From the NCBI GenBank assembly GCA_951406725.2, contig OX597814.1, positions 67,146,001 to 67,210,000 of the forward strand: a DNA stretch of 64,000 bases, read 5' to 3'. Source of the stretch: Octopus vulgaris (taxonomy: Eukaryota). Position 1 is the first letter of the stretch, and each line of letters opens with the position of its first letter. The position numbers and the translations under genes were made by a program. Positions 1,276-58,957 of the stretch are shown piece by piece. The notes under the pieces were generated by a model. The model was given only the letters and a program-made list of their open reading frames with translations, searched no databases and was not told the origin of the DNA.

Positions 1276-2350
1276 ATGCACACAAGAACAGCAAAACACA
1301 GTAAAATGATGGTAATGAAGGTCAGAATATACATCTACATTTGAGTTACGTACCCATTACATTCCAGTTAAGTCTTCATTTACAGTGCTGACATCTTCAT
1401 TATCATTTCTCCTATCATTACTATGCCACATGTATGGATGAAGAGCGACATTGGATTTGTTCATATTCAACCCACACTACCATCATCTATGATTTTTCTA
1501 CTTTTCTCCTGTGAAGCCATCTATGTAACAATGGCACTGACTGTCTGTGTTCAATCTCCACCTTCCATTACTATCCTTTATTGTGAACCATCTCTCTCTC
1601 ATTCTCTCCATTACTTGTTCACTACTTTATCATTCACTATTGACAGCCATCACTCTCTCTTACTATTACCCATATTTACTGGAGCTCATTACTCTCTCTT
1701 CTATCATTCATTGTTGACATCCATCATTCTCTTTACGCCATCAATCACACTTGCATTACACCCTCTTTCATCAGCCTGCTTCCCTCCTATCACACATAAT
1801 CTTCCCCTATCATGCTGCTCATAATGTTTTTCAATTCAACCCCTTCACCAGCAACCAACATGTAGCTGCCCATTACTCTCCCTTCCATTACTACCAACTC
1901 TTCATCCTCTCATCTACCTCATTCCCACATATCATTTGTGTAACAAAAGATGGCATCAGATCTGTTTCTATTCAATCTCCATCTATCATCATTCGTCTTC
2001 ATTATTATTACTAACCATCAGTCTCTTTTGCATGCTCTCATTATCCACTTCCTTGTCATCAACATAATTTCTCTTCTATTCATCCTTTTGGTCATGTTGC
2101 TTTGAATGAAGAGACTATGTGAAACTCTTTGCACACACCATAGAAAAGGCAATCTTACTACTAGAGCTGGTGCCACAACAAAATGTACCAATACACTCTG
2201 TAAAGTGGTTGGTGTTAGGAAAAGCATGCAGCCATAGAAACCATACCAAAAATTAAACATAAGCAAGATGTTCCTGACTCGTTTAAAAAAAGAGAATCTT
2301 CAAATGAGAACAGGCTCAGACCATGACAATTAATTCAACCAATTGCCAAT

Positions 2351-4405
2351 ATGGAAAGTATAACGTGGTGGTGGAACAATATTGTAGACAGGGCTATTAG
2401 AGAAAAGAGACAGGCTTGGAAGGTCTGGAAAAATGGGGGTAGCAGGGAATTGTATCAGACTGCCAAAAGAGAAGCTAGGAGACAGGTTTATTTAGCCAGA
2501 GGGGAAGCAGATAAGAAAAAATTTGCCAATGTTCTGCGCCGTGAGGACCAAAGACTGGAGGTGTTTCGTGTTGCAAGACAGTGTGTGAGAGAGAATCGTG
2601 ATGTGGTAGGAGAGAAGTGTGTTCGCATGGAAGATGGTTCACTTACGCTAAATGAGGATGCAAAGAGAGAGGTTTGGAGATGCCACTATGAAAGGTTGCT
2701 GAATGAAGAAAATGAATGGGATAAAGAGAGTCTGCCGAATGTTGACCCAACAGAGGGACCAGCTATCCGAGTTGATAGTTCCGTGGTAGCTAAGGCAATT
2801 AGAAGCATGAAGACAGGGAAAGCCCCAGGCCCATCAGGAATCACTGCAGAGATGCTCAAAATGTCTGGTAGTGTCGGCTATAGCCTAGTCACCCGTATAG
2901 TTAATCAGGTGATACACAAAGGGGTCATACCCAATGACTGGTGTAGCAGTATAATAGTCAACTGCTACAAAGGTAAAGGTGATGCCCTAGATACAAATAA
3001 CTACAGAGGTATCAAGCTGTTGGACCAGGTGATGAAGGTTACAGAGAGGGTCATAGCCCAACTAATTAGAGAGAGAGTTAGTTTAGATGAGATGCAGTTT
3101 GGGTTTGTGCCAGGGAAAAGTACTACTGATGCTATATTCCTGGTAAGGCAGCTGCAGGAGAAATACCTAGCCAAAGATAAGCCCCTGTACCTGGCTTTTG
3201 TTGACATGGAGAAAGCCTTCGACAGGGTCCCCCGATCCCTTATCTGGTGGGCAATGAGGAAACTAGGGATAGATGAATGGTTAGTGAGAGCTGTGCGGGC
3301 CATGTATAGGGACGCCGCTAGTAGGGTGAGGGTTGGAAATGAGTACAGTGAAGAATTCCGGGTAGAGGTAGGGGTCCACCAAGGCTCAGTACTCAGCCCC
3401 CTCCTATTTATCATAGTCCTCCAGGCAATAACGGAGGAATTCAAGACAGGATGCCCTTGGGAGCTCCTCTATGCTGATGACCTTGCTCTAATTGCTGAGT
3501 CGCTATCAGAACTGGAGGAGAAGTTTCAGGTGTGGAAACAAGGATTAGAATCGAAGGGCCTCAGAGTCAATCTAGCTAAAACCAAAGTCGTAATCAGTAG
3601 GAAGGTAGACAAATCACAAACACCTTCAGGTAGATGGCCCTGCTCGATCTGTAGAAAAGGTGTAGGTAGAAACTCTATAAGATGCACCAAGTGTAAGCTA
3701 TGGACACATAAGAGATGCAGCAATGTCAAAGGAAGGCTAACTAGGAAGATGGTTTTTGTATGTGGCAGATGCTCAGGAACAATAAACACTGAAAATGCTC
3801 TGAGACCAACTTCCGTCACTTTCCAGGGAGAAAAACTAGAAATAGTTGATAGTTTCCGTTACCTAGGTGACCAAGTCAGCAGCGGGGGCGGGTGTGCTGA
3901 AAGTGTAACTGCTAGAGTAAGAATAGCTTGGGCAAAGTTCAGAGAGCTCTTACCTCTGCTGGTGACAAAAGGCCTCTCGCACAGAGTGAAAGGCAGACTG
4001 TATGATGCGTGTGTACGAACAGCCATGCTACATGGCAGTGAAACATGGGCCGTGACTGCTGAGGATATGCGTAAGCTCGCTAGAAATGAAGCCAGTATGC
4101 TCCGATGGATGTGTAATGCCGGTACTCACACTCGGCAGAGTGTAAGTACCTTGAGAGAAAAGCTGGACCTAAGAAGCATCAGTTGTGGTGTGCAAGAGAG
4201 ACGTTTGCGCTGGTATGGTCATGTGGCGAGAATGGATGAAGATAGTTGTGTGAAAAAGTGCCACACCCTAGCGGTTGAGGGAACCTGTGGAAGAGGCAGA
4301 CCCAGGAAAACCTGGGACGAGGTGGTGAAGCACGACCTTCGAACTTTAGGTCTCACTGAGGAAATGACTAGAGACCGAGACCTCTGGAAGTGTGCTGTGC
4401 GCTAG
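2351..4405 (+). CDS. RTE LINE reverse transcriptase ORF (684 aa, no endonuclease, internal PHD-type finger)
   Basis: Motifs NYRGIKLL, QFGFVPGKSTTDAI, FVDMEKAFDRV, GVHQGSVLSP, YADD, YLG, and the RTE-type C-terminus GSETW...LRWYGHVAR...RGRPRKTW. Confidence 0.93.
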   Translation: MESITWWWNNIVDRAIREKRQAWKVWKNGGSRELYQTAKREARRQVYLARGEADKKKFANVLRREDQRLEVFRVARQCVRENRDVVGEKCVRMEDGSLTLNEDAKREVWRCHYERLLNEENEWDKESLPNVDPTEGPAIRVDSSVVAKAIRSMKTGKAPGPSGITAEMLKMSGSVGYSLVTRIVNQVIHKGVIPNDWCSSIIVNCYKGKGDALDTNNYRGIKLLDQVMKVTERVIAQLIRERVSLDEMQFGFVPGKSTTDAIFLVRQLQEKYLAKDKPLYLAFVDMEKAFDRVPRSLIWWAMRKLGIDEWLVRAVRAMYRDAASRVRVGNEYSEEFRVEVGVHQGSVLSPLLFIIVLQAITEEFKTGCPWELLYADDLALIAESLSELEEKFQVWKQGLESKGLRVNLAKTKVVISRKVDKSQTPSGRWPCSICRKGVGRNSIRCTKCKLWTHKRCSNVKGRLTRKMVFVCGRCSGTINTENALRPTSVTFQGEKLEIVDSFRYLGDQVSSGGGCAESVTARVRIAWAKFRELLPLLVTKGLSHRVKGRLYDACVRTAMLHGSETWAVTAEDMRKLARNEASMLRWMCNAGTHTRQSVSTLREKLDLRSISCGVQERRLRWYGHVARMDEDSCVKKCHTLAVEGTCGRGRPRKTWDEVVKHDLRTLGLTEEMTRDRDLWKCAVR

Positions 4406-11739: not shown

Positions 11740-12042
11740 TCTATTATATAAAAATCCATTCTGTCTGTCTGTGTGTGTGTCTTCTAGGATCTTGGGCATC
11801 CTCCATCCGATTGCGCTCAAATTTGATATGTAGATACTGATAGTATCAGGGCGTGTAAAAGTCTAGAAAAAATTACAAAAATCCATTCCAGGTGAGAATG
11901 CAATCGATAAAGCCATGGAAACGTGCATTTGTATGTGCAAGTACATCAGCTGTTGCGATCGATACTACGCGTACGCAAGAAAGATGCACGTGCAGTTTGC
12001 ACAAAAAAGTCAAGGAGCAGGGGATGCTGTTTTTATTTTCCA
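11740..12042 (+). mobile_element. Non-autonomous Helitron-like 5' end
   Basis: A^TCTATTATATAAAA start, then (TCTG)n/(TG)n and ccgattgcgctcaaatttg, the typical layout of a non-autonomous Helitron head. No 3' CTAG hairpin nearby. Confidence 0.55.
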
Positions 12043-13500
12043 CTGCAGACTACCTTGTTGACAAACGAGAGAGACCTTCTCTTTGTGGCTGGTGACTTCA
12101 ACGGTCACGTTGGACAATATGCTGGGGGCTTCCATGGTGTACATGGAGGCTATGGCTATGGTTCCCGCAATGAGGAGGGAACCAGGCTGCTGGAGTTCTG
12201 CGATGCAAATGATCTTATGATTTGCAACACTAACTTCAGGAAACCTACCAGCCACCTAGTTACCTACCAATCGGGCCAAAATACCAGCCAAATTGACTAC
12301 ATCCTTGCCAGGAAAAGGGAAAGATGGCTGCTTATAAATGCCAAAACCTTCCCAGGTGAAGAATGTACCCCGCAACATAGACTGGTAGTTAGTGACTTTA
12401 GGATCAGGACTAAGAGGACGACCAACATGGAGAAGAAGGATCTGGAAGCTTAAAGATCCTGCGAATGGACAGAGATTTAGGGACATATTACTTGAAGCCT
12501 TTGACGAAGTAGAAGGGGATAGAGCATCACATGGGGTAGAAGACAACTGGACGTTTCTAAGGGACAACCTGCTGAAAGCCACTGACCAGATCTGTGGCTG
12601 GTGCAAAGTCCCCTTTCGACCCAAAATAACGTGGTGGTGGAAATATGTTGTAGACAGGGCTATTAGAGAAAAGAGACAGGCTTGGAAGGACTGGAAGAAT
12701 GGTGGTAGCAGGGAATTGTATCAGACTGTCAAAAGGGAAGCTAGGAGACAGGTCTATTTAGCCAGAGGGGAAGCAGATAAGAAAAAATTTGCCAATGTTC
12801 TGCGCCGTGAGGACCAAAGACTTGAGGTGTTTCGTGTTGCAAGACAGTGTGTGAGAGAGAATCGTGATGTGGTAGGATAGAAATGTCTTCGCATGGATGA
12901 TGAATCACTTGCGCTAAATGAGGATGCAAAGAGAGAAGTTTGGAGATGCCACTATGAAAGGTTGCTGAATAAAGAAAATGAATGGGATAAAGAGAGTCTG
13001 CCGAACAGAGGGACCAGCTATCCAAGTTGACAGTTCCTTGGTAGTTAAGGCAATTAGAAGCATGAAGACAGGGAAAGCCCCAGGCCCATCAGGAATCACT
13101 GTAGAGATGCTCAAAATATCTGGTAGTGTCGGCTATAGCTTAGTCACCTGTATAGTTAATCAGGTGATACATGAAGGCGTCATACCCAATGACTGGTGTA
13201 GCAGCATAATAGTCAACTGCTACAAAGGTAAAGGCGACGCCCTAGATACAAATAACTACAGAGGTATCAAGCTGTTGGATCAGGTAATGAAGGTTATGGA
13301 GAGGGTCATAGCCCAACTAATTAGAGAGAGAATTAGTTTAGATGAAATGCAGTTTGGGTTCGTGCCAGGGAAAAGTACCACTGATGCTATATTCCTGGTA
13401 AGGCAGCTGCAGGAGAAATACCTAGCCAAAGATAAGCCCCTGTACCTGGCTTTTGTTGACATGGAGAAAGCCTTCGACAGGGTCCCCCGATCCCTTATCT
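12043..13500 (+). mobile_element. Internal fragment of the same RTE family (APE endonuclease C-terminus plus RT N-terminus)
   Basis: GDFNGHVG, SQIDYIL and QHRLV endonuclease motifs. 12626-13500 is closely similar to 2360-3246. Has stops and frameshifts; both ends are missing. Confidence 0.93.
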
Positions 13501-13790
13501 CCAACCATTATGTACCAGAAACAAAGGGTAGTAACAACAGTAGCAATGAGGATTTTCTTTCTATTGTTGTATGTCTTAAAATAAGTGTTTGGATTTTTTT
13601 TTTTTTTATCACTGGCTAATTTTCACTTGGAAATAAATTTAGCTTGTGCTTTTAAGCAAAGAGAATTGGAACAATTATAAAATGCAGCTTATAAGGAATC
13701 AACATAGTGATATTTTGACAAATCTACTAGATTTTAAAATACATTTCTCTAAAAGCATCAGTCATAAAGCAAAAAAGCCAACAGCTTTAC

Positions 13791-24728: not shown

Positions 24729-24785
24729 ATATATATATATATATAGGTGAGAGAGTCAGTATATGAAAGCAGGTGGTTGGATGTA

Positions 24786-25127
24786 TAAAATACAAAACAG
24801 AGGGAAAAACTACAGAAGACATGATTTATATGGTTAAAGAATATATTTAAATCATTATGTTAGAAAAATGTTAGAAAATTTTGTATATAGTAACACTGCT
24901 TTGAGAAAAATAACTAGTTTCATATTTTCTTTTCTAATTTCTTTACCAATATTGCGTCATCTCTTCCCTATGAAGTGAAGTATGAGAGTTCCAGACAGGG
25001 AAAGGTAATCAGGGATTTTTTCGGTGTAAGTGAGATAATCAAAATGTTGGGTATGACTAGGTTGTATTGATTTAACATGATTATTTGGTTTAGAAAGGGT
25101 AGAATGTTAGAAGTGGCTAAGTTTTGC

Positions 25128-25173
<46 letters not shown>

Positions 25174-27412
25174 ATCCAAACATGAAAACACAAAGAGAAA
25201 ACACAACAACGCAGGGATGTGGAACAAGTATAGTGTTATTGGACGCTCAGGAAAGGAAAAAAAGAGGATTTAACGTTTCAAGCAGAGCGCTTCGTCAGAA
25301 ACATAGGAAAAGGAAAGATCTAAGGAAGGGAAGACGGAGGAAAAAAATCGCCAATGGTACACACGCGGTCACATTTTGAATGACCGGAAGGGAATGGGTG
25401 AAGAAAAAGTTCTTTCAAAGACAGGAGAGTGCAAGAGAAGAAGGTATGTGTGTGTAAGTGTGGATATATGCATGCGCGCAGGTCTGTGTTTGTGTGTGTA
25501 TGTGTGTAATGATAGCACGTGTGTGTGGTTGTGGCTGTTAATCTATGTGTATGGTTGGGCTTAGTATCATTTAAGGTCAAGGAAGAATGAAGTAGGAGCA
25601 GCTCTTGTATCTACCTACCCAGGTGCATAGAAGAATGGTCAGTGGAAGGTACTGGTAGTTTGAAGTATGTGTGTGTGCGTGTATGTATATGTATTGTGTG
25701 TGTATATGTGTTCATGTGTGTATGCGGGGAATAACTGTCCTTTACTTTGTGTATGTGTGTGTGTGTGCTTGAATGTGCGTATGTGTGTATACATGTATGT
25801 ATAATTGTGTGCGTATATGAGTATGTGAGGTATTTGTGGGTTCATTTGTGTGCATGTGCGTGTATGCGTATGTGGGTGTATATACGTGTATCCGTGGGGT
25901 TGTGAGTGTTAGGTGTATGCATTCGTGTGAAGAACTTTTTCTTCACCCATTCCGTTTGTGCGCGCGCATGTGTGTGTTTGTGTCTATATGTGTATACGTA
26001 TGTGTATGTGTGTGCGCATGTATGCATATATTGTGTATGTATATGTATAGGTGTGTATCTGAATTTGTGTATACGTGTGTGTGGGGTTTGTGGAGTTTGT
26101 CTAGGCGTAATGTGCGTGTGCTTGTGTGTGCTTATGTACATATGTGTTTGTGCCCATGTGTATAATTGTGTGCGTGTCTGTATGTGTATTATTTGTTGGA
26201 GGTCTATGTGCAAACCTTTGCTAGTGTGTGTGTGTGTGTATTATGTGCATATGTATGTGCGTGTGTATATGTGTATGTGCGTGCATGTGTATATGTGTGT
26301 GAACATGGAGATGTGTCAGGTTGTGTGCATTTTGTTGTGTGTACGTGCTTGAGTATGTGCGTGTATGTGGTTGTGTGTACGTTTATATGCGTGTGTGTGT
26401 CTGTGGGGTTATGTGGGATAGGTTTCTGTGCATTCCTGTGCATGTGCGTGTACGTTTGTGTATGTGTGTGTGTATGCGCATGTGTGTGCGTGTGGGTGGG
26501 TGTATGTGTATGTATGCGTGTGTGTTTGTGTGTGGAAGTATGTGTGTATATGTGCATGTATATATGTTGTATGTGTGGCGTGTGGGAGGTATATGTGTGC
26601 ATTCGTGGATATGTATGCGTGTGTATGTGTTCGTGTATAAAAGCAATAATTTATAAAAACAAATAAAGAAACTCATCTCATTGCAAAGATATATATATAT
26701 TTGCAATGAGATAAATTTTGGCTTTATTTTTCAATAAAGTAGATTTCCTTATTTAATCTATCTTGTGTTGGTGTTCCAGTAGCACACTGATAAAATGGAA
26801 AAATTACAAATTGTGGTAGTAGTTGCTTTGCGCATTTCTCAATGTGTTCACACCCTTTAGTGAATACATTGAGAAATGTGCAAAGCAACTGCTACCACAA
26901 TTTGTAATCTTTCCATTTTATCAATGTGCCATTGGAACACCAACACAAGTTAGATTAAATAAGGAAACCTACTTCAATGAAAAATATAGGCCAAAACTTA
27001 ACCATTTCTAGCATTTTTAAATAAGGAAACTTACCTCACTGAAAAAATATATATTTATAAAGCAAAATTTAACCACTTCTAACATTCTATTCTTTCTAAA
27101 TCAAAGAATCATGTTAAATTAATAAAACCTAGTAATTCCCAACAATTTTGATTATCTCCCTTATACCGAAAAAATCCCTGATTACTGTCCCCTGTCTGGA
27201 ATTCTCATATTTCACATCATAGCGAAGAGATAACACAATATTCGAAAAGAAATTTGAGAAATTTGAAAAGAAAATACCAAACCAGTTATTTCTCCAAAAG
27301 CAATGTTACTATACACAAAATTTTATAACATTTTTCTAACATAACGACTTAAATATATTCTTTAACCATATAACACAAGTCTTCTGTAGTTTTTCACTCT
27401 ATTTTGTCTTTT
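24786..27412. mobile_element. Large foldback element (about 550-bp arms) interrupted by a 1.5-kb insertion
   Basis: 24786-25140 is the reverse complement of 27050-27412, and 26700-26850 of 26860-27000; centre near 26855. Confidence 0.8.
25170..26690 (-). mobile_element. Penelope-type terminus with hammerhead motif, followed by a long degenerate (TG/TA)n tract
   Basis: Minus strand gttt-CTGACGA-agcgctctgctt-GAAAC-gtta at 25266-25302. About 1.2 kb of low-complexity TG tract at 25440-26640. The 27-bp segment 25391-25417 recurs inverted at about 25929-25953. Confidence 0.65.
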
Positions 27413-27953
27413 ATTTATTTATTTATAGACAGACAAACAGACAGACAGATTGATAGATATCTGTGTGTGTCTTTCTGTCTTTGTCCCTCAACACTGTTTG
27501 ACAACTGGTGTCAGGGTGTTTACAGCCCAGTAATTTAGTGGTTCAATGAAAGAGACCAACAGAATAAATAACAGGTTTGAAAAGTAAAAAATAAATACTG
27601 CAGTCAAATCATTTTACTACAAAAGCTTCAAGATGGTGCCCCAGCATGGCCACAATTTAATGATTGATACAAGTAAAAGATATAAAATAGAATTTATTAG
27701 ACACATTTTTAACAAAAAAATTATATCCAATAATTCTGTAAACAAATACATGCTATTCTGTGAATGCATTCATTTTATATACCTGAAATGAATGCAGAAG
27801 TGGTACATCCCTTTTCAGGTAACATCAAGCTTACATTCAACTTACAAATACAGAAACATTTCAATACTGCCCACAACAAATTCTACTTTTAGACTTCACA
27901 ATTCAGTAAATATAAAACTACAAATGATATTTGGTAAACTTTAATATACTCAC

Positions 27954-33367: not shown

Positions 33368-34740
33368 ATTCATCATCATCCAGTGTTTTAAATCTGGGGT
33401 TTTGTCCCCGTTAACAAGGGTGGCCAGATCTACCTCAATGCCATAGCAACCGCCCTCACACCAACTTGCCCAGTTTTGGGCATCCTCCCTTCTCAAGTCA
33501 GCCCTCCCAATTTACCCACATTTACCTCAAACTCAAGCACCCTCCTCAGAACATGCTCTTCATTCCACCTCAACACATGTCCATACTACTGCACACCATT
33601 CGCCCCAGTCAGCCATTCCACCAATTCCTCCAGCCCCAGCATCCCCATCAAGTCTTCAGTCCTCCTCTTAACAAACAGTTTCACACCACACATTTTTTTC
33701 ACCATTGCTCTCTCGGTCCTTCTCAAAATTGCCATCTCTCCCCATTCATACACCATGTCACACTCCCATACAGCATTGCAGCTTTCACGCAACTCCTATG
33801 ACACTTCTTTTCATCTTCAATGAGAATCTTTTTCCATATAACAATGCTCCACATTCTCTGAACTTCACCCAGCCAAGCCTCACTCTTGCTGTCACAGCTG
33901 CTTCATCTCCACCCTATCTCCCAAACAACAAAACCCTCTCACTATTTCTGCCTCGTCACATAAACGTTTCCACTGGGTCCACCAGTCCTCCAGCTCCTTT
34001 CTCACATCTTCCCCAAATAAACTTTCTTGCCAGTCTTAGGGGTCACCTTCATTTCCGTACATCTACCATGGATCCATTTTTTACATCTCGTACACAACAC
34101 CGCATTTGCCATTACACTCCTCCCACATACACCACATGGATCCATTTTACTCACTAACACTTCTCCTTCCACACCACTCACCATCACCTTTATCTTCCCA
34201 AAGTTTACTGTCAAACCCTTGCTTTCAAATGCCTCCTTCCATTTCCAAAACTTCTCCTTCAATCTCTCCATTGTCTCACTCATCAGAACAAGGTCATCAG
34301 CATACAGTATCTTCATTATTAATCCTTCACTTCCACTCTCTGTCACCACATCAACCACTATTGCAAACAACAACAGTGACAACACAAATCTCTGATGGAC
34401 ACCAACTTTCACTGCAAACTCCTCCGACATCTCTAATCCAATTCTAACTCGTCTTTACCACCATCACTGCTCTCACTATTACCTCTAGTACACCTCTCTT
34501 CCTCAATGCACACTCAATCACTTTCCTTAAAACCCTATCAAATTCCCTTTCCAGATCAACAAAGTACATATACAACTCCTTCTCCTTATCTCAGCATTTC
34601 TCTTGCAATCTCCTTACAATGAAGACTGTATCTATTGCCCAACTTCCTGGCATAAAACTAAATTGCATCTTGTCCACATCCACCCCTTTCCAAATTCTCT
34701 TCTCCAACACCCTTTCCACTATCTTCATTGCATGCTCCAT
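33368..34740 (-). mobile_element. Second RTE subfamily, 5'-truncated and degenerate
   Basis: GVHQRFVLSLLLF, YADDLVL, PHD-like CGVC...CTRC...HGRC; (GAT)n tail at about 33368-33379. Confidence 0.88.
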
Positions 34741-35621
34741 TCTGTCATGAAATTTTTTATTCAATGATCACAGCAAATAACTAAGAAAACAAGAAAACAG
34801 ATTTTTTTGGCTTTACATTGTGCAGTTTTCTGGTTTGGAGGAAACCTAGTATTATGGGGGAAATAATGCAGTTGGCAGTCAGTTTCTTGAGTGAGAGTCA
34901 GAATAATTTGGCATAATTCATTATTTCAAACACTAAGTATACACTGTTCATAACAAATGTACATGTTACTTTTTGTTTTTTTAAATTTAAAACATCATTC
35001 ATATTTCAATAGTCCACAACAAAAGAAAATAATGTCCTACCAGCCATGATAATCCAAGCAATATACAATGTATATTAATACATACACACTCAATGTGTGT
35101 GTGTGTGTGTATCTACTTATTCACTTGCCCTTAATATAAATTTATTAATTTTACCTTAACTGGTTAATATAAATTTATTAATTTTACCTTAACTGGTTAT
35201 TACAGGCTAACTACCTGATAAAATCATATATAGATTTTATCCTAAATTTTAAAATATATATAATTTCACCTAAACCAAAATTATTCACTGCTGAATTATT
35301 TGGTTGTTCACATATGGCTGAGATAAACTACATTTTTGAATTTTAATTTGTATATAAGTACAAACAGCTGTATTTACGATGTGAATCTGTTGTGTTCCTG
35401 TGCTATGCATAATTGTTCGTATTTATGTGCATTGGGTTATATTACACTGACGATGGAAAATGGGAATTTTCCCCATAATCCTGAAATCAGTTGATAAGTA
35501 ATTGAACCTTTTGTGCTTATTCCTCTGATTTCGACACGTGTTTATTATGATAGTTAAGGTAGTTTAGAGCCATTTGGTGTCTTCCTTTAGCATGTAGTTA
35601 AGCCTGTGTACTTACTTGCCC

Positions 35622-35658
<37 letters not shown>

Positions 35659-35846
35659 CTACCCATGACCTGTTGGGTCACCAGGAAACTTTGAGTTTTC
35701 CATCAACGGAGTTTTGTTTTGTGGGTTTTTTTTCTTTTCCAAGTTATTCAGATGCTTTCAATGAATGTGACATCAGAATCACATGTAAATGGCTCCTTTA
35801 CCCAGAAAAGAAAGGATTTGGCTGCTATTTCAGGGTAGCCTGCCTT

Positions 35847-37431
35847 TTCTCTTTATTATAGGCACAATGGCCTGACTGAAGAGGGGACATAACAATACAA
35901 TACAGGACATGGGGGACAAATAATAAAAATAAAAAGATATGAAATGAAATGAATTATTAACAATGAATTAAATGAAATGGCTTACGAGCCCCCCAAAGCT
36001 TGCAGTTTCATTTATATTACAGTTATACTATCTGGGGCGTTCGTCCGTAATGTAAACGAGTAATTCATCTTGCTCTATAACTCCAGGCAAACTGTCATAT
36101 CGAACGTAATACTTTATGGTTACAACTGTATCTGAAAACAAATTTTTAAATTTATTTACCATCTCTTTTTCCACTATTGCAGCCTTTGTTTTGTCATCGT
36201 ACATCTTCGAGTTCAATTTCACTCTCATTAGATTCTTCGTTGCTGCTAATTTTTTCTCAATTTCTTTATCTTTTGTGTACAATATTACAGCTCTGAGATT
36301 CTTTCCTTTAGGTCTTCCTCCTTCCTTGCATGTTTTCAGACATTCTTCCACTTTTGTTGACCATTTTACCGCTTCCTCCCACCTTGAACCTCTACTCACT
36401 TCAGTTGCTGTATCTCTCTCTTCGTGCATTCGATCCTCTGTCTCGTCAGCATACTTCTTTTTAGTTTTTTTCTTTTTTTGGTCTTTGGGTGGTGATTCCA
36501 CCCATGTTCGCTTTCTATCCTCTTTTTCTTCTGTTCTTTCCTCTTCTCTCTCCTTCACTAACTCGTCGTCACTTTCCATATTATCTCCTAAGTCCTCTGT
36601 CAAAGCTCTTATTGCTTCCTCCAGTGTCATCTTCTTCTCTTGTATTTCTCCTTCAGGACACACATATTTCATGTGCCCTCTTTTCTTACATTTATAACAC
36701 ACTGGAGGTCTCCCCTCCACCACCACTCTCAGACGTGTCTCGTCGGGTAACACTAACTCCTCCGGGATGTTATACAAATCTGGCATGGTTATGTGGACCA
36801 CATAACCCTACCAGTTTATTTCATTCAACTTTTCCACCTTAAGTATATCCACGTTCTCCTTGCAGTTGTAGATTATTGCAGCTACTATTCTTTCGGTATC
36901 AATTTCCGGTGGGATTTTGCTTATTCATATCCTCACTGCTCTTTTTCCACAATAACTAGGGAGTAAAACCCATTTTTCCGATCTCAACACTGTCGTTGCG
37001 TTCCTTTTCGCTTCGTCTTCATTTTCGAAGCGAACGTCTACCGTACCATATTTTCTACCTCTATTGTAGAAGGTAGTTCTTCCTTGTAGACACTTTTCAA
37101 TCTCTTCCACCACTGCTACTTCTATTGAGACCACATTCCATGTTCTGTATGTTATGATCTTTTTCTCTGCTTTTTTCACTTCGTCTTCAGGTGGTGTAAC
37201 CCTCAGACTCCTTCCTTCTTGAAGCTGTCGTAGTATTTCCACAAATTTTCCATCTCAATAATTATTTCTTCCAACTGTAACTCGTTCGCAGCCAGGCTTT
37301 TGCCTGCTGCTCCCGCATAAGTTTGGGCTTGCATACCCAACAAAGAATTCAACAACTCAACAGCTTTCAACAACAACAATCAACAAAACTCAACTCACAA
37401 CCGTAAATCCGAAAAACCGACACAAACACAG
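35847..37431 (-). mobile_element. ORF1-only non-LTR retroelement (Tx1/L1-like ORF1, HAL1-type architecture)
   Basis: Short 5' UTR, one disrupted ORF with a CCHC knuckle, 180-nt 3' UTR ending in AATAAA-gagaa, bounded by an 18-bp direct repeat (17/18 identical) at 35829-35846 and 37432-37449. Confidence 0.7.
36028..37334 (-). pseudogene. Gag/ORF1-like protein (about 435 codons) with RRM-like region, CX2CX4HX4C knuckle and charged tail
   Basis: Starts MQAQTYAGAA; one frameshift near 37245; in-frame stops TGA (36925-36927) and TAG (about 36808) join the two track ORFs in one frame; knuckle CYKCKKRGHMKYVC. Confidence 0.78.
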
Positions 37432-37583
37432 TTCAGGGTCGCCTGCCTTGCTCGCTGAGATGACTGCAACCTCTCTGCAAATATATCATATCAGTAAAAT
37501 TTATTTACTGATCACCGAAATTAAAAATATTGAATTTTTAAATGTCTCAGAGAGACATAAGCGGTGGTGGAGCGATATAGTGG

Positions 37584-37815
37584 TCGTATACTGTCAACTC
37601 AATGTGACAGTCCTGTAAGGACTCAGAAACATATGTCTTCTACACTCAAAAACATATGTCCTCAGGTGCCTTGTCCCGGCTTGCGGAGGTGATTGCCTCC
37701 CCTTTGCAAATATAAGGACACAGAAAATGTGTCAAAGCTAACGAAGTTTCCTACGGCTAAATGGCGGTGGTGTAATTCCCTTACGGGACTGTCACATTGA
37801 GTTGACAGTATACGA
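37584..37815. mobile_element. MITE-like element, 232 bp with 37-bp inverted ends
   Basis: tcgtatactgtcaactcaatgtgacagtcctgtaagg (37584-37620) vs 37779-37815, one mismatch. Confidence 0.8.
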
Positions 37816-38369
37816 AAATAGAAACATTTACTGTCAAAAGAAAAAAAGCGTATTTTTCCGTTGCCAAGTCTCTGTATCTAATTGAAAGATAAGAGTTTCT
37901 TTCCTTTCAGGGTTAAGATTATTATCAGAATACTTTCCCATTATGCACCGTTTTGGGTATTCATACCCCGCAAACCTCTAATATCCGAAGACACCACTTG
38001 TCCAATTTACGCAAAATTTGTTTTATTCTGTTCATATTAACATCTCAGGGTAAACTTAATTCATAGTATTCTCCCATTATGTGCCAGTTTGGCTGGGTAA
38101 CACTGCAAGCAAGCAAAGAAGACTCAAACTGACTTTTAATGTATTATAGATATAAATCATTCATTTCGATTAACATCTGTTTCCTGTGTTAACATGGCTT
38201 AGACAGACGTAAATATTAAGGCAAGGTTTTTATGACTAGATGCATTTCTTGTCACTAAACTGTTTTCAGAAGAATTTGAGAGCATATTCAATGAACAATT
38301 TCAGTGACAAGAAATATCAATAAACATTTCATTCTTCCCTTGACTACACCTTTTTCTTGCATTTGGACA

Positions 38370-38935
38370 CAATTTTTTATCTGTCATCATTATCTTGGAG
38401 ATTTTCCAAGTGGGCTCTTCTGATCTCTTGTAAACTACCTGACAACTGCAATGGTCCACCTATTGTCTGCAAGCCTCGCAACATGTCCATTCCAGCAGAA
38501 TTTGTGCTTTTAGAATTCCTTTCTTGAATTACTTTGTTTTGGTAATACTCCTGCAAATGTATTCCTAGCATGGATCTTTCCATGACTCTCAATGCTGTAT
38601 CCGGTATTATTTTTCCTTATTCTTCACAGCCAATGTCTCATTTGCATACAGGAGCACAGATAAAATAGTACTAATGAAAGTGTCTTGCAGATTTGGACTT
38701 GAGCATGGAGATCAGTTGTGCATTTAAATCTGAGCACAGCTTTAAATAAGGCAAATGCCTTCATACCTGCTCTTACTCTGCACAAAATTCCAGTGTCCAT
38801 ACCTCAGCATATATTTACTGTCTGTCCCAAATAGATATATTTCTTCACCTCCTCAATTTCATCACTTTCTGTAACAATTCAGCCTTTTCAAACAGCATGT
38901 ATTTTGTTTCCACATGGTTTATTTTGAAACCTACG
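38370..38935 (-). mobile_element. Decayed RTE (BovB-like) ORF 3' fragment
   Basis: EEVKKYIYLGQ and LRVMERSMLGI remnants. Confidence 0.65.
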
Positions 38936-39064
38936 GCTGATCTCTGAACCCTGATATCTTAATAACAAGAAATAGGCCATGGCATATCAGGTGACTTGCC
39001 CTGAATTCTGACCAATCATATTTCAAACACATCATGTGACTGCATGATTTGAATAGAAATTTCA

Positions 39065-39172
39065 GATCTTTTCCTTTTCATGGGCAGCTCGATTAACTAA
39101 ACACTTTGAAACTTCGTATACTGGTAGAATGTGTCAAAAAGAATATCATTTTACTCTTAGCATTGTTGAGAA
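39065..39172 (+). mobile_element. One-ended fragment of the Merlin-type MITE seen at 59046-59624
   Basis: Shares aactaaacacttt.aaacttcgtatactggtagaatgtgtcaaaa. Confidence 0.8.
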
Positions 39173-40258
39173 TGAACTGAAGTTGCTAAAGAAAGCTTAA
39201 ATTATTGGCAGTTGTTCTGGTTTAAAGGATAGGACTTAACTGATATTGTTCAAGTTAGGTCCAATTTTGGGGACAAGTTATTGTCATGGTTCTGATGACA
39301 AATTTCAACAAACCTGAGGTTAGGTATTGCTGTGAATTGGAGGCATACAGCACAAGTTCTTGGAAATGTTGTATATGGAAATGAACATGAGCACATACAA
39401 AATACAAGTATCTGTCTATACATATGTGTGTGTGATAGTGATGATATATACACACACACACACACACACAAAGTACAAGTATCTGCATATACATGTGTGT
39501 ATGTGTGTGTTTGATGATACACACACACTCACACACATTATTTATGTCCATACTAGCATGGACTGGACAGTTTAACAGGATATGATGGGCCCAATGATAG
39601 CATCATGCTCCTGTACCTGCTTTGGCATGGTTACAATGACTGGATACTCTTTGTAATGCCAAACATTTTACAGCATATACTGGATGGTTTTTTTTTTTCA
39701 TGCTATCAGTACAATTGAGGTTATCATGCAACTCACAAGGCAATGAACCCTGATGAGGGAGTCAGCATTATGCAAGGGAAGGAAGGATTGAAGTATGAGA
39801 GGTGGGGAGGCAGAGTAGGTTCTTGTAGAGAAGCTACATGGCTACTTGAATTTAGGAGAAATAGTGACAATGATCAGTAGCAAAATAAAATAGTGGTGAT
39901 GGGGTATTCAGGTGGCTTCACAAGGCATTGAGATAAACTTGAGAACATCATACTGCTAACACACTAATCAGCAGAACAATAACAGCCATAATCCTAAGGC
40001 AGTCATATGGTTAAATAAATCTATATTTACCTCTCATACCCCATTTTGTTTTTATACGCTCCTCACAAAATAATTTAATCACTCAGATTTTCTGGATGTG
40101 CATGGATGCTTTACATTAGATTACTTTGTAATTGATTATGATGTGGACTGATAGCTGAGTCTGTATGAGGGGCTTACTGTTATAGTAACATGATTCTCTG
40201 AATCCATATCTTATACTACTCATTTACACACACATACATATATACATGTACATATGTG

Positions 40259-40433: not shown

Positions 40434-41450
40434 TCAGGTCATCCCATAAGTACTGTCCGAATTTTGAATAAAGAAAACAAGTGATCAAATGTTATATTTA
40501 ATTGAAATTTAATCATCGATATACTTTCTCTGATTATCTATGACTTTCTTCCATCTATTTACAAGCTTTTTAATCTCATCAATGTAAAACACTTTTGGTT
40601 TCAAAGAACTCTGAAATGTCAGTTTCCACCTTGTCCTGGCTTACGAAAGTTATGTCCCCCAAATAATTCTGTAAACTACGAAACAAATGGTAGTCTGAAG
40701 GTGTATGGTTGGGAGAATAGGGTGGATGAGGAATTTTTTGCCAGCTGAGCTCTTCGATCTTCTGTGATGTGATCTTTGGAGTGTGGGGGTCACACATTAT
40801 CCAGATGAAACATCACTCCTTTTCGAGTCACTAAAGCAGGTCTTTTTTTCTTCAAAGCTTGGTTCAAACGCTCCAATTGCTGACAGTAGACTTGAGCACT
40901 GATTGTTGCATTAGGTGGTAACAATTCAAAGTGAATTACTCCTTTGCAATCCCTCTAGATACAGAGAAGAACCTTTTTTCCATAAAGTTCCCTTCTCGGT
41001 TGTGGTTGAGCTTTTTCCCTTTTACCTAGCCACTGTTTACGACGTTTAACATTTCGATAGAAGATCTATTTTTCCTCACCATTCACAAGTCTATCCAAAA
41101 AAGGTGAAATAAATTCACAAGAATGGAGATAAGGGCAGATGTCAACTCACGATTTGCAGTTGCTTTCGTACAATTCATGAGGCACCCATTTTCCAAGTTT
41201 AGGAACCTTTCCAAGCTGTTGAAGATGAAAACAAACAGTTGTATGGTTTGAACTAAGCTTTATTGCCAATTTTTCAACTGATAATGCAGGATTTTCTTCA
41301 AGTAATGCCTCAAGGAGCTTATCATCAAACTCAACTGGACATCCTGTTCGATCTTCATCTTCAAGGCTGAAATCTCCACTACTGAATTTTGCAAACTCTC
41401 TTCTGCAAGTTCTTTCATTCAAGCATTCTTTCCCATAAACTAAGTATACA
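40434..41450 (-). mobile_element. Mariner transposon relic with one TIR
   Basis: TIR tcaggtcatcccataag next to a (TA)n tract; motifs GKWVPHEL and HPPYSPNHTPSDYHLFRSL; 5' end replaced by an unrelated fragment. Confidence 0.88.
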
Positions 41451-41454
41451 ATGT

Positions 41455-41785
41455 AGAGAAAAAAAAAACGATTTGAACACCTGGAGGAAAGCACCATTGA
41501 AAAGTGTCTTGGTGTGACTATGAAAGATATCAAGTATCTAACCAGAGGCAGTAAATTCGCCACAATAGAAGTAAGGTTTGAGTCAACAGAGCATGCAAGG
41601 GAGTACTCGACTCGAACCTTGCAAAGTGGAAATATTTTATTTTTACCTTTATATCTGGGACATAGGACATTCTGGATAAAAATTAAAAATGTCCCTCCCA
41701 GAAGTAGAGGTAGGCTGGATTGTAGCCACTCTTCTATACAAGAGGGAGGACAAGATACAATTGATTGAAATTGCAAGAGAGGGGC
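41455..41785 (+). pseudogene. Diverged fragment of the ORF1-like family seen at 36028-37334
   Basis: IEKCL...RGSKFATIEVRFE...FLPLYLGHR...IKNVPP/EVEVGWIVATLLY aligns with IEKCL...RGRKYGTVDVRFE...LLPSYCGKR...ISKIPPEIDTERIVAAIIY. Confidence 0.8.
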
Positions 41786-41973
41786 CTACAATTCCAGTCT
41801 GTTATATATGTACTAGCACTATGACCCGGCAACGCCGGGTCATCATGCTAGTATATATATATATAATTAAAGTCAAAATGAGGGTGAAAAAATTCGATAT
41901 TAATTTAATAACATCAATTTAAACACCAGTGGCCTAGCGTATAAAACACTGAGATTCAGTAAATATTATTAAT

Positions 41974-56951: not shown

Positions 56952-58957
56952 GTGAAGATAGCAGTGTGAGGCACAACTCTAAGGCTGTGGGTGATTTTGA
57001 TCGATCACATAGTAGACAGGATTGATGTGGTAATGGGATGGATGCAATTAACCGCCTTAGAGGTGTCAATGTTGGAGGAGACATGGTTTCATTTGGTGCC
57101 ATGAGTCAGAGATGTGAGAGGGAGCAGAGCTGTGTGAGGGGATGCACTGCCTACACCATTGAAGACAAGGATTTTCAGGTGGTGGACAATAGAGTGACGC
57201 TGGAAAGAGGAGCCCCTGATGCTGAAGAACAGGATGAGGTGCTACCAGCATACCCTGAAAGGACATGCCAGGAGCGAATTTGAAGAAGTAGTAGAGAGGT
57301 GGATTAAAGAAGGTGTCCTTACCTCATGGAAGGAAGAGGTGGTGAGCAGAGTGCCATTTCTAATGGCAATGGTGCAGTCAGCAAAGTCAGACCAGTACTG
57401 GACTTTCAGGAGATGAATGGCCATGTATTGTGCCACACAGGTGATGAAGCAAATGACATCTGTGGCGAGACGCTGCACATATGGAGACAGTCAACTAAGA
57501 CAGCAACTATTGTCGACATGAAGTCAGCATATTTGCAGCTTCATGTGGGCAACAAACTGTGGCAGTATCAGCTGGTCCAATACAGGGGCTGGACATGGCT
57601 GGGTTTTGGGCTGAATTCTGAGCTAAAGATCATGGTGACATTTCTCAAATCCATCCTGGGAAAGGTGGATAGGATAAGAAGGGCTACGAATTCCTATATA
57701 GATGACATCTTAGTGGATGAGTCTTGTGCCTGTCACAGAGGTTGTGAGACATTCGAAGAAATTTGGGCTGATTATGAAGCCACTAGAGCCAATGGCTGGA
57801 AGAGCTGCACTGGGCTTAAGCTTCAAAGAGACAGAACAGGCATGTTGGTGTTTTGAAGGGGGAATGAGATCCCGGAGCTGGATACCAATGTCAGCAGGAG
57901 AGAAGTGTTCTCGTTCGGGATATTAGTAGACATTCTTACCAGAGTGGAAAAGGCCTGGTTAAGAGAACCAGAAAAATCAAAGCAAGGGATAGCTACAGTG
58001 TGTCAGTTAAATGACTCTGAACTAAGGAGACTGCATGCCATGTATCATATGGGCATGGATAGGACCCTGTATCTCGCCAGGAGGATTGACAATGACATTA
58101 CTAGACAGAGCATCCAAAAGGTGGTCAGGAACTGCGATAGGTGTCAATCCATCGACCCTGCTCCAGGTGTGCATGAGCAGGGAAAAATTTCAGGAGAGCA
58201 CTACTGGCAGGGGACATATCTCCTGATTGGTCAACTGGGCCGGATGGCCATTTGGTGGGAATTGAGGGCTGGCACTGTAGACGAGAAGGCATGTATTCTA
58301 AATGAGGTATTCTTGGAGCAGGATCCTGTGGACGGATTGTTGATGGACAACAGCACAGTGTTTCATTTGGATTCACTGAAGGAGATGCTTGACAGGTGGA
58401 AAGTGCACTGCTTTTTCAGAGCAACATACAGGCCGAGTGGAAATGGGATCATGGAAAGACATCATCGAATGATCAATGCCATAACAAAGCGGGGACACAT
58501 TTCGCCACTGGAAGCAGTATTCTGGTACAACATGTCACCCCAATCAGGTCGGGCCGAAGAGTCCATACCACATAGAGCCATATTCAAAAATGAATGGCAG
58601 CATCCAAGTAAACCATCAGGATGCCCTGTGGAAGAGATAGGACCTGTCTTCATGGAGGAGGGAGACGAAGTCTGGATCAAGCTGCCAAAGGTACGCTGCA
58701 CAACTCAATGGAATAGTGACGGCTGTCAATTCCAAAAACAACATTTCTGTGGATGGAATGCCACAACACATCTTAAATGTTTGTAGGATTGTCGCTTTGT
58801 CAGATGATGATTGTGGAGAAGAAGAGACTGCGGTTCCCAGCTTAAGAAGATCACAACATGCAAGGCACCCACCCAGCTGGGTGGTAGATTACTAGACAGG
58901 CATCAGCGAGAGGAAGGTAGGTGAGCCCCTTTCATTTCCCACACATGACACGTCACA
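56952..58957 (+). mobile_element. Degenerate Ty3/Gypsy pol fragment (PR-RT-IN)
   Basis: VMGMDAI, KVRPVLDF, DMKSAYLQL, YIDDIL, integrase H..H..CDRC, MDNS, SGNGIMER; purine tract at about 58905-58917; RNase H mostly deleted. Confidence 0.85.

Follow-up and report, generated by a model that had tools for sequence, protein, structure and literature searches.

A unit of 1.6 kb on the minus strand of octopus DNA is bounded by an 18-bp direct repeat and carries one open reading frame (ORF) that resembles the ORF1 of a LINE. This raises the question of whether the unit is a member of a retroelement family that encodes only ORF1 or the remainder of a complete element. In this study, we analysed the unit within a window of 64,000 nucleotides from Octopus vulgaris (assembly GCA_951406725.2, contig OX597814.1, positions 67,146,001 to 67,210,000 of the forward strand). 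The coordinates of its features are given in Table 1.

An initial annotation made from the sequence alone had proposed a 97-nt minus-strand leader, an ORF of about 435 codons with a TYAGAA motif, a CX2CX4HX4C knuckle, and a 3' untranslated region (UTR) of about 180 nt ending in AATAAAgagaa. All of these were found again. The leader consists of 51% T and 32% G. The ORF runs from an ATG at 37334 to a stop at 36028-36030 (1,307 nt, or 435.7 codons) and contains both the TYAGAA motif and the knuckle; the match of the window ORF to Pfam zf-CCHC had an E-value of 0.004 and lies below the curated cut-off of that family. The 3' UTR measures 181 nt, and its longest A run after AATAAA is 4 nt. Between the two direct repeats there was no reverse transcriptase (RT) or endonuclease and no other coding content. 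To this extent the absence of RT and endonuclease was reproduced, but about 1.1 kb past the 3' repeat there is an RT fragment that belongs to another family. The frame is broken by one frameshift near 37205 and by in-frame stops at 36925-27 and 36808-10. The annotation had counted only three lesions; the three frame lesions are present, but the window copy also departs from other copies by in-frame indels, as seen in contigs from public runs. At both stops and near the frameshift, the contigs of other copies read differently from the window copy, and the frame breaks are therefore private to it.

Table 1. Positions of the element, its parts and its immediate surroundings in the window.
Feature	Position	Strand	Basis or remark
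Left flank, itself a repeat; weak collinear similarity to the left part of the inverted-repeat element	35655..35828		Depth; 9/300 shuffles
Direct repeat, 3' side of the element	35829..35846		Probable target-site duplication
3' untranslated region, 181 nt, 41% T, no poly(A)	35847..36027	-	Multicopy depth
AATAAA polyadenylation-signal-like hexamer, 5 nt short of the repeat	35852..35857	-	Putative function
Decayed type I LINE ORF1-like gene, ~435 codons	36028..37334	-	Frameshift and two stops
Conserved C-terminal domain, ~87 aa, without a family name	36049..36309	-	Profile match and P0010 model
E/K-rich linker, 38% E+K, approximate limits	36334..36648	-	Disordered in the model of relative P0010
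CX2CX4HX4C zinc knuckle	36658..36699	-	Motif and Pfam zf-CCHC match
Two tandem RRM-like (ferredoxin-type) domains	36709..37164	-	Approximate limits, transferred from relative P0010
T/G-rich leader, 97 nt, probable 5' UTR	37335..37431	-	Other copies align there
Direct repeat, 5' side of the element	37432..37449		Repeat comparison
Flank, probable target remnant; resembles the inside of the neighbouring inverted-repeat element	37450..37500		Alignment, 0/300 shuffles
MITE-like very high-copy repeat, 37-nt terminal inverted repeats; outside the element	37584..37815		Context

The repeat status of the element was examined with contigs from four public runs, which were aligned to the window at 80% likeness. 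Taking contig depth as a rough guide and not as a copy number, the median depth of the ORF bins relative to the single-locus flank was 63, 45, 31, and 48x in the four runs, with a minimum of 8. Since the ORF and the 3' region are covered at tens of times the single-locus depth, the element is an interspersed repeat. The window also contains a second, divergent fragment of the ORF1 superfamily at 41448-41815 on the plus strand (87.8 bits). This fragment comprises the first RRM and the start of the second and then jumps to the start of the knuckle; it is thus deleted and has no usable ends. Next to it, at about 40.7-41.4 kb on the minus strand, is an apparent transposase remnant, which has no Pfam hit and is presumably of the mariner type. 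A scan of metagenome contigs for a second locus, seeded with P0006, gave 230 pattern matches, of which 0 were confirmed. Five loci that matched the 3'-end pattern (1 in a metagenome and 4 in prokaryotes) were rejected as chance matches of 23-25 nt without ORF similarity.

We next consider the protein. Relatives were sought among 1.84 billion representatives, and 385 were found at a cut-off of E<=0.001. They include hundreds of sequences with 25-59% identity, mostly broken pieces. All 17 relatives with a taxon name were octopod (16 of the 30 looked up, together with the closest relative, P0002), and the hosts named were O. bimaculoides, O. sinensis, O. vulgaris, and Argonauta hians. In a quick tree, the window ORF stood beside P0002 on a branch without a star. 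A zf-CCHC match at E<=0.1 was present in 24 of 36 relatives. The evidence on the fold comes from a natural relative, P0010, and not from the window copy; P0010 is 25% identical to the window ORF over 399 aa. Its model (mean pLDDT 76.9) shows a pair of beta-alpha-beta domains, followed by a disordered linker and by a C-terminal domain that is folded, with a pLDDT of 79-94. Foldseek with this model returned tandem-RRM proteins as the best matches (E 9e-5), with low TM-scores, and a second structure aligner returned RRM and other ferredoxin-type folds with middling Z values of 7-8. The RRM-like fold proposed in the initial annotation is thus supported, but as two domains and not as the single block described there. 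Atlas similarity to a ZCCHC3-RBD cluster (0.90) and to a DUF4283 cluster (TM 0.47) provides leads only.

The E/K-rich part had been taken as the tail of the protein. We found instead that a conserved domain, about 87 aa in length, comes after it. Six relatives (P0006, P0009, P0010, P0012, P0022, and P0081) stop 1-7 residues past the match to the end of the window ORF, and because they terminate where it terminates, its C-terminal end is natural and not truncated. A profile of the last 90 residues of these six matched window residues 299-385 at 1.5e-19, and a short motif near the C-terminal end is shared by 41 of 46 relatives of >=600 aa (P0003 and P0035 excluded). From the shared ends and the C-terminal profile it follows that the ORF is complete and that the E/K stretch is a linker before a conserved domain. 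No name for this domain was found in the libraries searched, where the best feature score was 0.76 with a TM of about 0.5; a single-sequence model of the domain had a pLDDT of 44.8 and was unusable.

Pfam families of RT, endonuclease, integrase, protease, and capsid were matched by 0 of 165 scanned relatives (27 at E<=0.01 and 138 at E<=0.001), a set that includes P0003, an unrelated knuckle repeat. Among 120 listed matches to a distant clade, the domain annotation was zf-CCHC or nothing. A weak search for a longer fused form found none among 4,015 candidates of 1,508-4,305 aa, and no capsid was among the matches listed in three fold searches. As modelled, the protein is a type I LINE ORF1 protein with two RRM-like folds, a CCHC knuckle, an E/K linker, and a C-terminal domain. 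The proposal of a LINE-type ORF1 protein in a mobile element was therefore borne out for a multicopy element whose ORF is complete at its C-terminus. In the accessible part of PMC5203782, RRM plus CCHC defines type I LINE ORF1, which is consistent with Tx1 in animals and occurs beyond Tx1 too, and mammalian L1 ORF1 is type II, with a coiled coil, one RRM, and a CTD. Since type I ORF1 occurs in several LINE clades, we lean towards L1/Tx1 and do not assign the element to it. Within the distant clade, P0155, P0169, P0181, P0152, and their kin are apparently intact ORF1-like proteins of 640-860 aa on long contigs, and their 90%-identity clusters hold up to 159 members, which suggests a young active family. 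Fragments of the ORF1 family are also spliced into WD40, RGS, LDL-a, and astacin gene models (P0035, P0080, P0105, and P0125); these are probably annotation artefacts.

The 18-bp repeat was confirmed at both ends, the two copies being identical at 17 of 18 positions. In a comparison of the two 100-nt end zones, the best pair of 18-mers had 17 identities, and 0 of 295 random zone pairs exceeded 15. With a search pattern derived from the direct repeat itself, 2 matches with <=3 mismatches occurred in the window, compared with a shuffle mean of 0.11 and with 0 of 100 shuffles giving 2. Both flanks are repetitive, at 120-226x (left) and 35-147x (right) single-locus depth. The 5' repeat and the next 50 nt align to 37662-37728, inside the inverted-repeat element (score 48), with no shuffle of 300 scoring as well. 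The left flank aligns weakly and collinearly to the left part of the same element, in one of seven alignments tried. In runs X1 and X2, a contig with 83% identity joins 37320 to 37450 and so connects the start of the ORF with the sequence found upstream of the 5' repeat here, as would be expected for a shared target but also for a longer element end. At least 2 contigs stop matching at 37429, beside the 5' repeat. In most cases the left-flank repeat runs on into a different sequence from 3 nt inside the direct repeat (at least 32 contigs in X1; two window sites), a pattern not expected from a simple duplication within a single intact host repeat. No empty-site joint was among 15 of 94 joints listed, which are too few to weigh either way.

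On the sequence evidence, the direct repeat is best read as a probable target-site duplication inside a diverged relative of the neighbouring inverted-repeat element. Of the two readings offered initially, a target-site duplication or a copy of the target carried at the 5' end, the flank alignments make the former the most likely. Some target preference is possible, based on the window locus and one other contig. The available text of PMC4494074 sets the threshold for target preference at >20% of flanks of one type and records Tx1 families that target DNA transposons, namely Tx1 into Tx1D and Tx1-Mar into Mariner-N4. No tRNA gene was found at 34000-40000. A search of Rfam with 34500-39000 gave only two chance miRNA matches and thus no snRNA or ribozyme target. 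Near the 5' repeat, three consecutive short perfect hairpins lie at 37490-37560, before the MITE-like element. The first bin of that element reached about 1,000-2,300x single-locus depth, and its loose ends point to the presence of longer inverted arms in other copies.

The central question is whether the family as a whole lacks ORF2. The depth of the 3' region was 1.1-2.1x the ORF median across the four runs. A LINE of 5-6 kb with the usual 5' truncation is expected to give a larger excess at its 3' end, and the small excess is a hint for an ORF1-only family. Another hint comes from contigs whose sequence departs from that of the window: 1 in X2 and 2 in X7 continue to align through 36015, a position 13 nt past the stop. 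A third is given by the relative P0030, which is complete at both ends on a contig of 2,209 nt, of which 1,812 nt are coding. In gene model P0009, a piece of the C-terminal domain is joined to a second ORF1 piece, an arrangement that might be expected of neighbouring ORF1 units. We therefore consider it fairly probable that the window copy is a dead member of an octopod family of non-autonomous non-LTR elements, 1.6 kb in length and coding for ORF1 alone. An RT fragment at 33738-34740 (minus strand), the one noted above, was considered as the missing ORF2. It is 5'-truncated and on the same strand as the element; it was rejected because it is not between the repeats, includes no endonuclease part, and belongs to another family, being 49% identical over 136 aa to the RT-PHD family at 2327-4405. 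Three LINE copies with RT and a PHD finger occur in the window, at 2327-4405 (+), 11911-13619 (+), and 33738-34740 (-), and are presumably RTE-like. The copy at 2327-4405 has an open frame of 692 aa and is 94% identical to that at 11911-13619 over 300-nt stretches.

The chief alternative is an ordinary autonomous L1/Tx1 family, in which the window copy lacks ORF2 either because its transcript ended early at an AATAAA between the two ORFs or because of a one-off deletion; we regard this as a real possibility, although an unlikely one. The 861-aa distant relative P0152 sits on a contig of 6,159 nt, long enough for ORF2, and part of the superfamily may therefore be autonomous. Recently active octopus L1-Tx1 insertions average about 5.4 kb in the part of the literature available, and no poly(A) marks a regular 3' end. 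Moreover, because ORF2 is a protein distinct from ORF1, searches at the protein level cannot reveal whether an ORF2 comes next. Against a one-off deletion stand the ORF-like depth of the 3' region in four runs and the differing contigs past the stop. They do not speak against early termination, and early-terminated transcripts of a complete element would give the same picture in these data. The 181-nt T-rich region with its terminal AATAAA looks more like a 3' UTR than a spacer. Among 24 of 2,119 loose ends and 15 of 94 joints listed, none fell in 35847-36100, and these are too few to weigh either way.

Two further readings concern the nature of the element itself. If the 18-bp repeat were the element's own terminal redundancy, with the 5' end past 37488, the unit could be a Gag-only derivative of an LTR, tyrosine-recombinase, or Penelope-like element. 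The depth at 37449-37488 is about 21-95x single-locus, like that of the ORF, the upstream sequence recurs on one other copy, the left-flank repeat breaks off where the direct repeat starts, and the CCHC knuckle also occurs in Gag. However, in the model of the relative, two RRM-like folds occupy the region before the knuckle, where a Gag capsid would sit, and this is the architecture of type I LINE ORF1. There is also no long terminal repeat, as only the 18-bp repeat joins both ends within 35600-38300, and the sequences upstream of the two repeats are unrelated (3' region versus right side, 135 of 300 shuffles as good). With matching also ending beside the 5' repeat in at least 2 contigs, we judge this origin improbable. 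A retrocopy of a host RNA-binding gene of the ZCCHC3 type, perhaps itself a domesticated ORF1, would share the intronless ORF, short UTRs, AATAAA, and flanking duplication, which also describe a processed pseudogene, and the feature similarity of 0.90 to the ZCCHC3-domain cluster speaks for it as well. It is nevertheless very hard to reconcile with the tens-fold depth across the ORF, with hundreds of 25-59% identical relatives that are mostly broken and in part lie within unrelated gene models, and with clusters that hold as many as 159 near-identical members. None of the relatives stands out as a single conserved parent. We give this reading very little weight.

Taking the ORF1-only family as the preferred reading, a mechanism can be proposed from known LINE biology, which is the basis for its transcription, RNA binding, ORF2 borrowing, and target-primed insertion. 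An intact master would have been transcribed from the leader, with the transcript ending after AATAAA. The ORF1 protein would then have bound this RNA and assembled together with the particle of a complete element of the L1/Tx1 type. The ORF2 protein of this partner, with endonuclease and RT, may have nicked its target within some relative of the inverted-repeat family, and copying of the RNA by target-primed reverse transcription would have left the 17-18 bp duplication. The inserted copy would then have decayed. As far as the accessible text of PMC13282606 goes, 13 of 80 L1-Tx1 families of O. vulgaris were recently active, with 421 insertions averaging about 5.4 kb, and possible partners thus exist in the genus.

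The element was compared with known systems, using the accessible portions of the papers cited. HAL1 (half-L1) of mammals is non-autonomous and codes only for ORF1p (PMC5753468; PMC5786205). The octopus copy likewise encodes ORF1 only and would work similarly if its family is ORF2-less. HAL1, however, derives from mammalian L1 and has a type II (Transposase_22) ORF1, whereas the octopus element has an RRM-RRM-CCHC ORF1 of type I. HAL1 carries a poly(A) tail, while the octopus element has none and its host is an octopod. Since the ORF1 type differs and poly(A) is absent, the element is not HAL1; the label HAL1-like is apt for its mode of working and not for its membership. HeT-A and Ag-Sponge resemble the octopus element in being ORF1-only and differ in belonging to other clades. 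The host of Ag-Sponge is Anopheles. HeT-A (Drosophila, Jockey clade) and Ag-Sponge (CR1 clade) are LINE derivatives with ORF1 only, and their protein is proposed to form multimers with that of the autonomous partner (PMC5786205). HeT-A forms telomeric arrays, in the text available, whereas the octopus copy is interstitial, with a duplication at its flanks. In Dictyostelium, TRE5-A.2 lacks ORF2, depends for its mobility on the ORF2 protein of TRE5-A.1, which acts in trans, and is position-specific (PMC5633606); it inserts upstream of tRNA genes, none of which was found around the octopus copy. Xenopus Tx1 and crocodilian Tx1-Mar, with their insertions into Tx1D and Mariner-N4 (PMC4494074), share type I ORF1 and, probably, insertion into an inverted-repeat element, but are complete elements with their own endonuclease and RT. 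Like the non-autonomous LINEs that retain ORF1, the octopus element has a complete LINE-type ORF1 and is a multicopy interspersed repeat. ORF1-only LINE derivatives are an established class in mammals, flies, and amoebae, and the octopus element is no new kind of system.

In the open-access literature searched, which does not extend to subscription journals, Repbase, Dfam, or the repeat library of O. vulgaris, no cephalopod ORF1-only element was found; the octopus element may already be present as a repeat-library entry. Such an element is not described in the accessible parts of PMC9115989 or PMC11203168. If the family is ORF2-less, it would represent an independent molluscan origin beside HAL1, HeT-A, Ag-Sponge, and TRE5-A.2, and would support the keeping of ORF1 in cis as a recurring strategy. 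RT-based repeat surveys would miss such a family, fragments of which are already inside octopus gene models. A broader proposal, which we hold to be doubtful, is that octopods carry a long-lived ORF1-only radiation of the Tx1 type. It would comprise many subfamilies at 25-60% protein identity, with a complete ORF1 and its unnamed C-terminal domain under selection, a borrowed ORF2, and preferred insertion into inverted-repeat elements. If true, a molluscan LINE with target specificity would be host to a protein-coding parasite, and the pair would provide a natural experiment on the reason that ORF1 is needed in cis and ORF2 can be borrowed.

Other features were observed elsewhere in the window. 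At 57308-58786 (+), decayed pol-like frames of an LTR retrotransposon show RT-like and integrase-like motifs by eye, and one scanned frame of this region gave no Pfam hit at E<=0.001. At 24785-27414 there is a large inverted duplication, centred near 26855 around a (TG)-rich tract, with several arm pairs of 100-160 nt that are 83-89% complementary.
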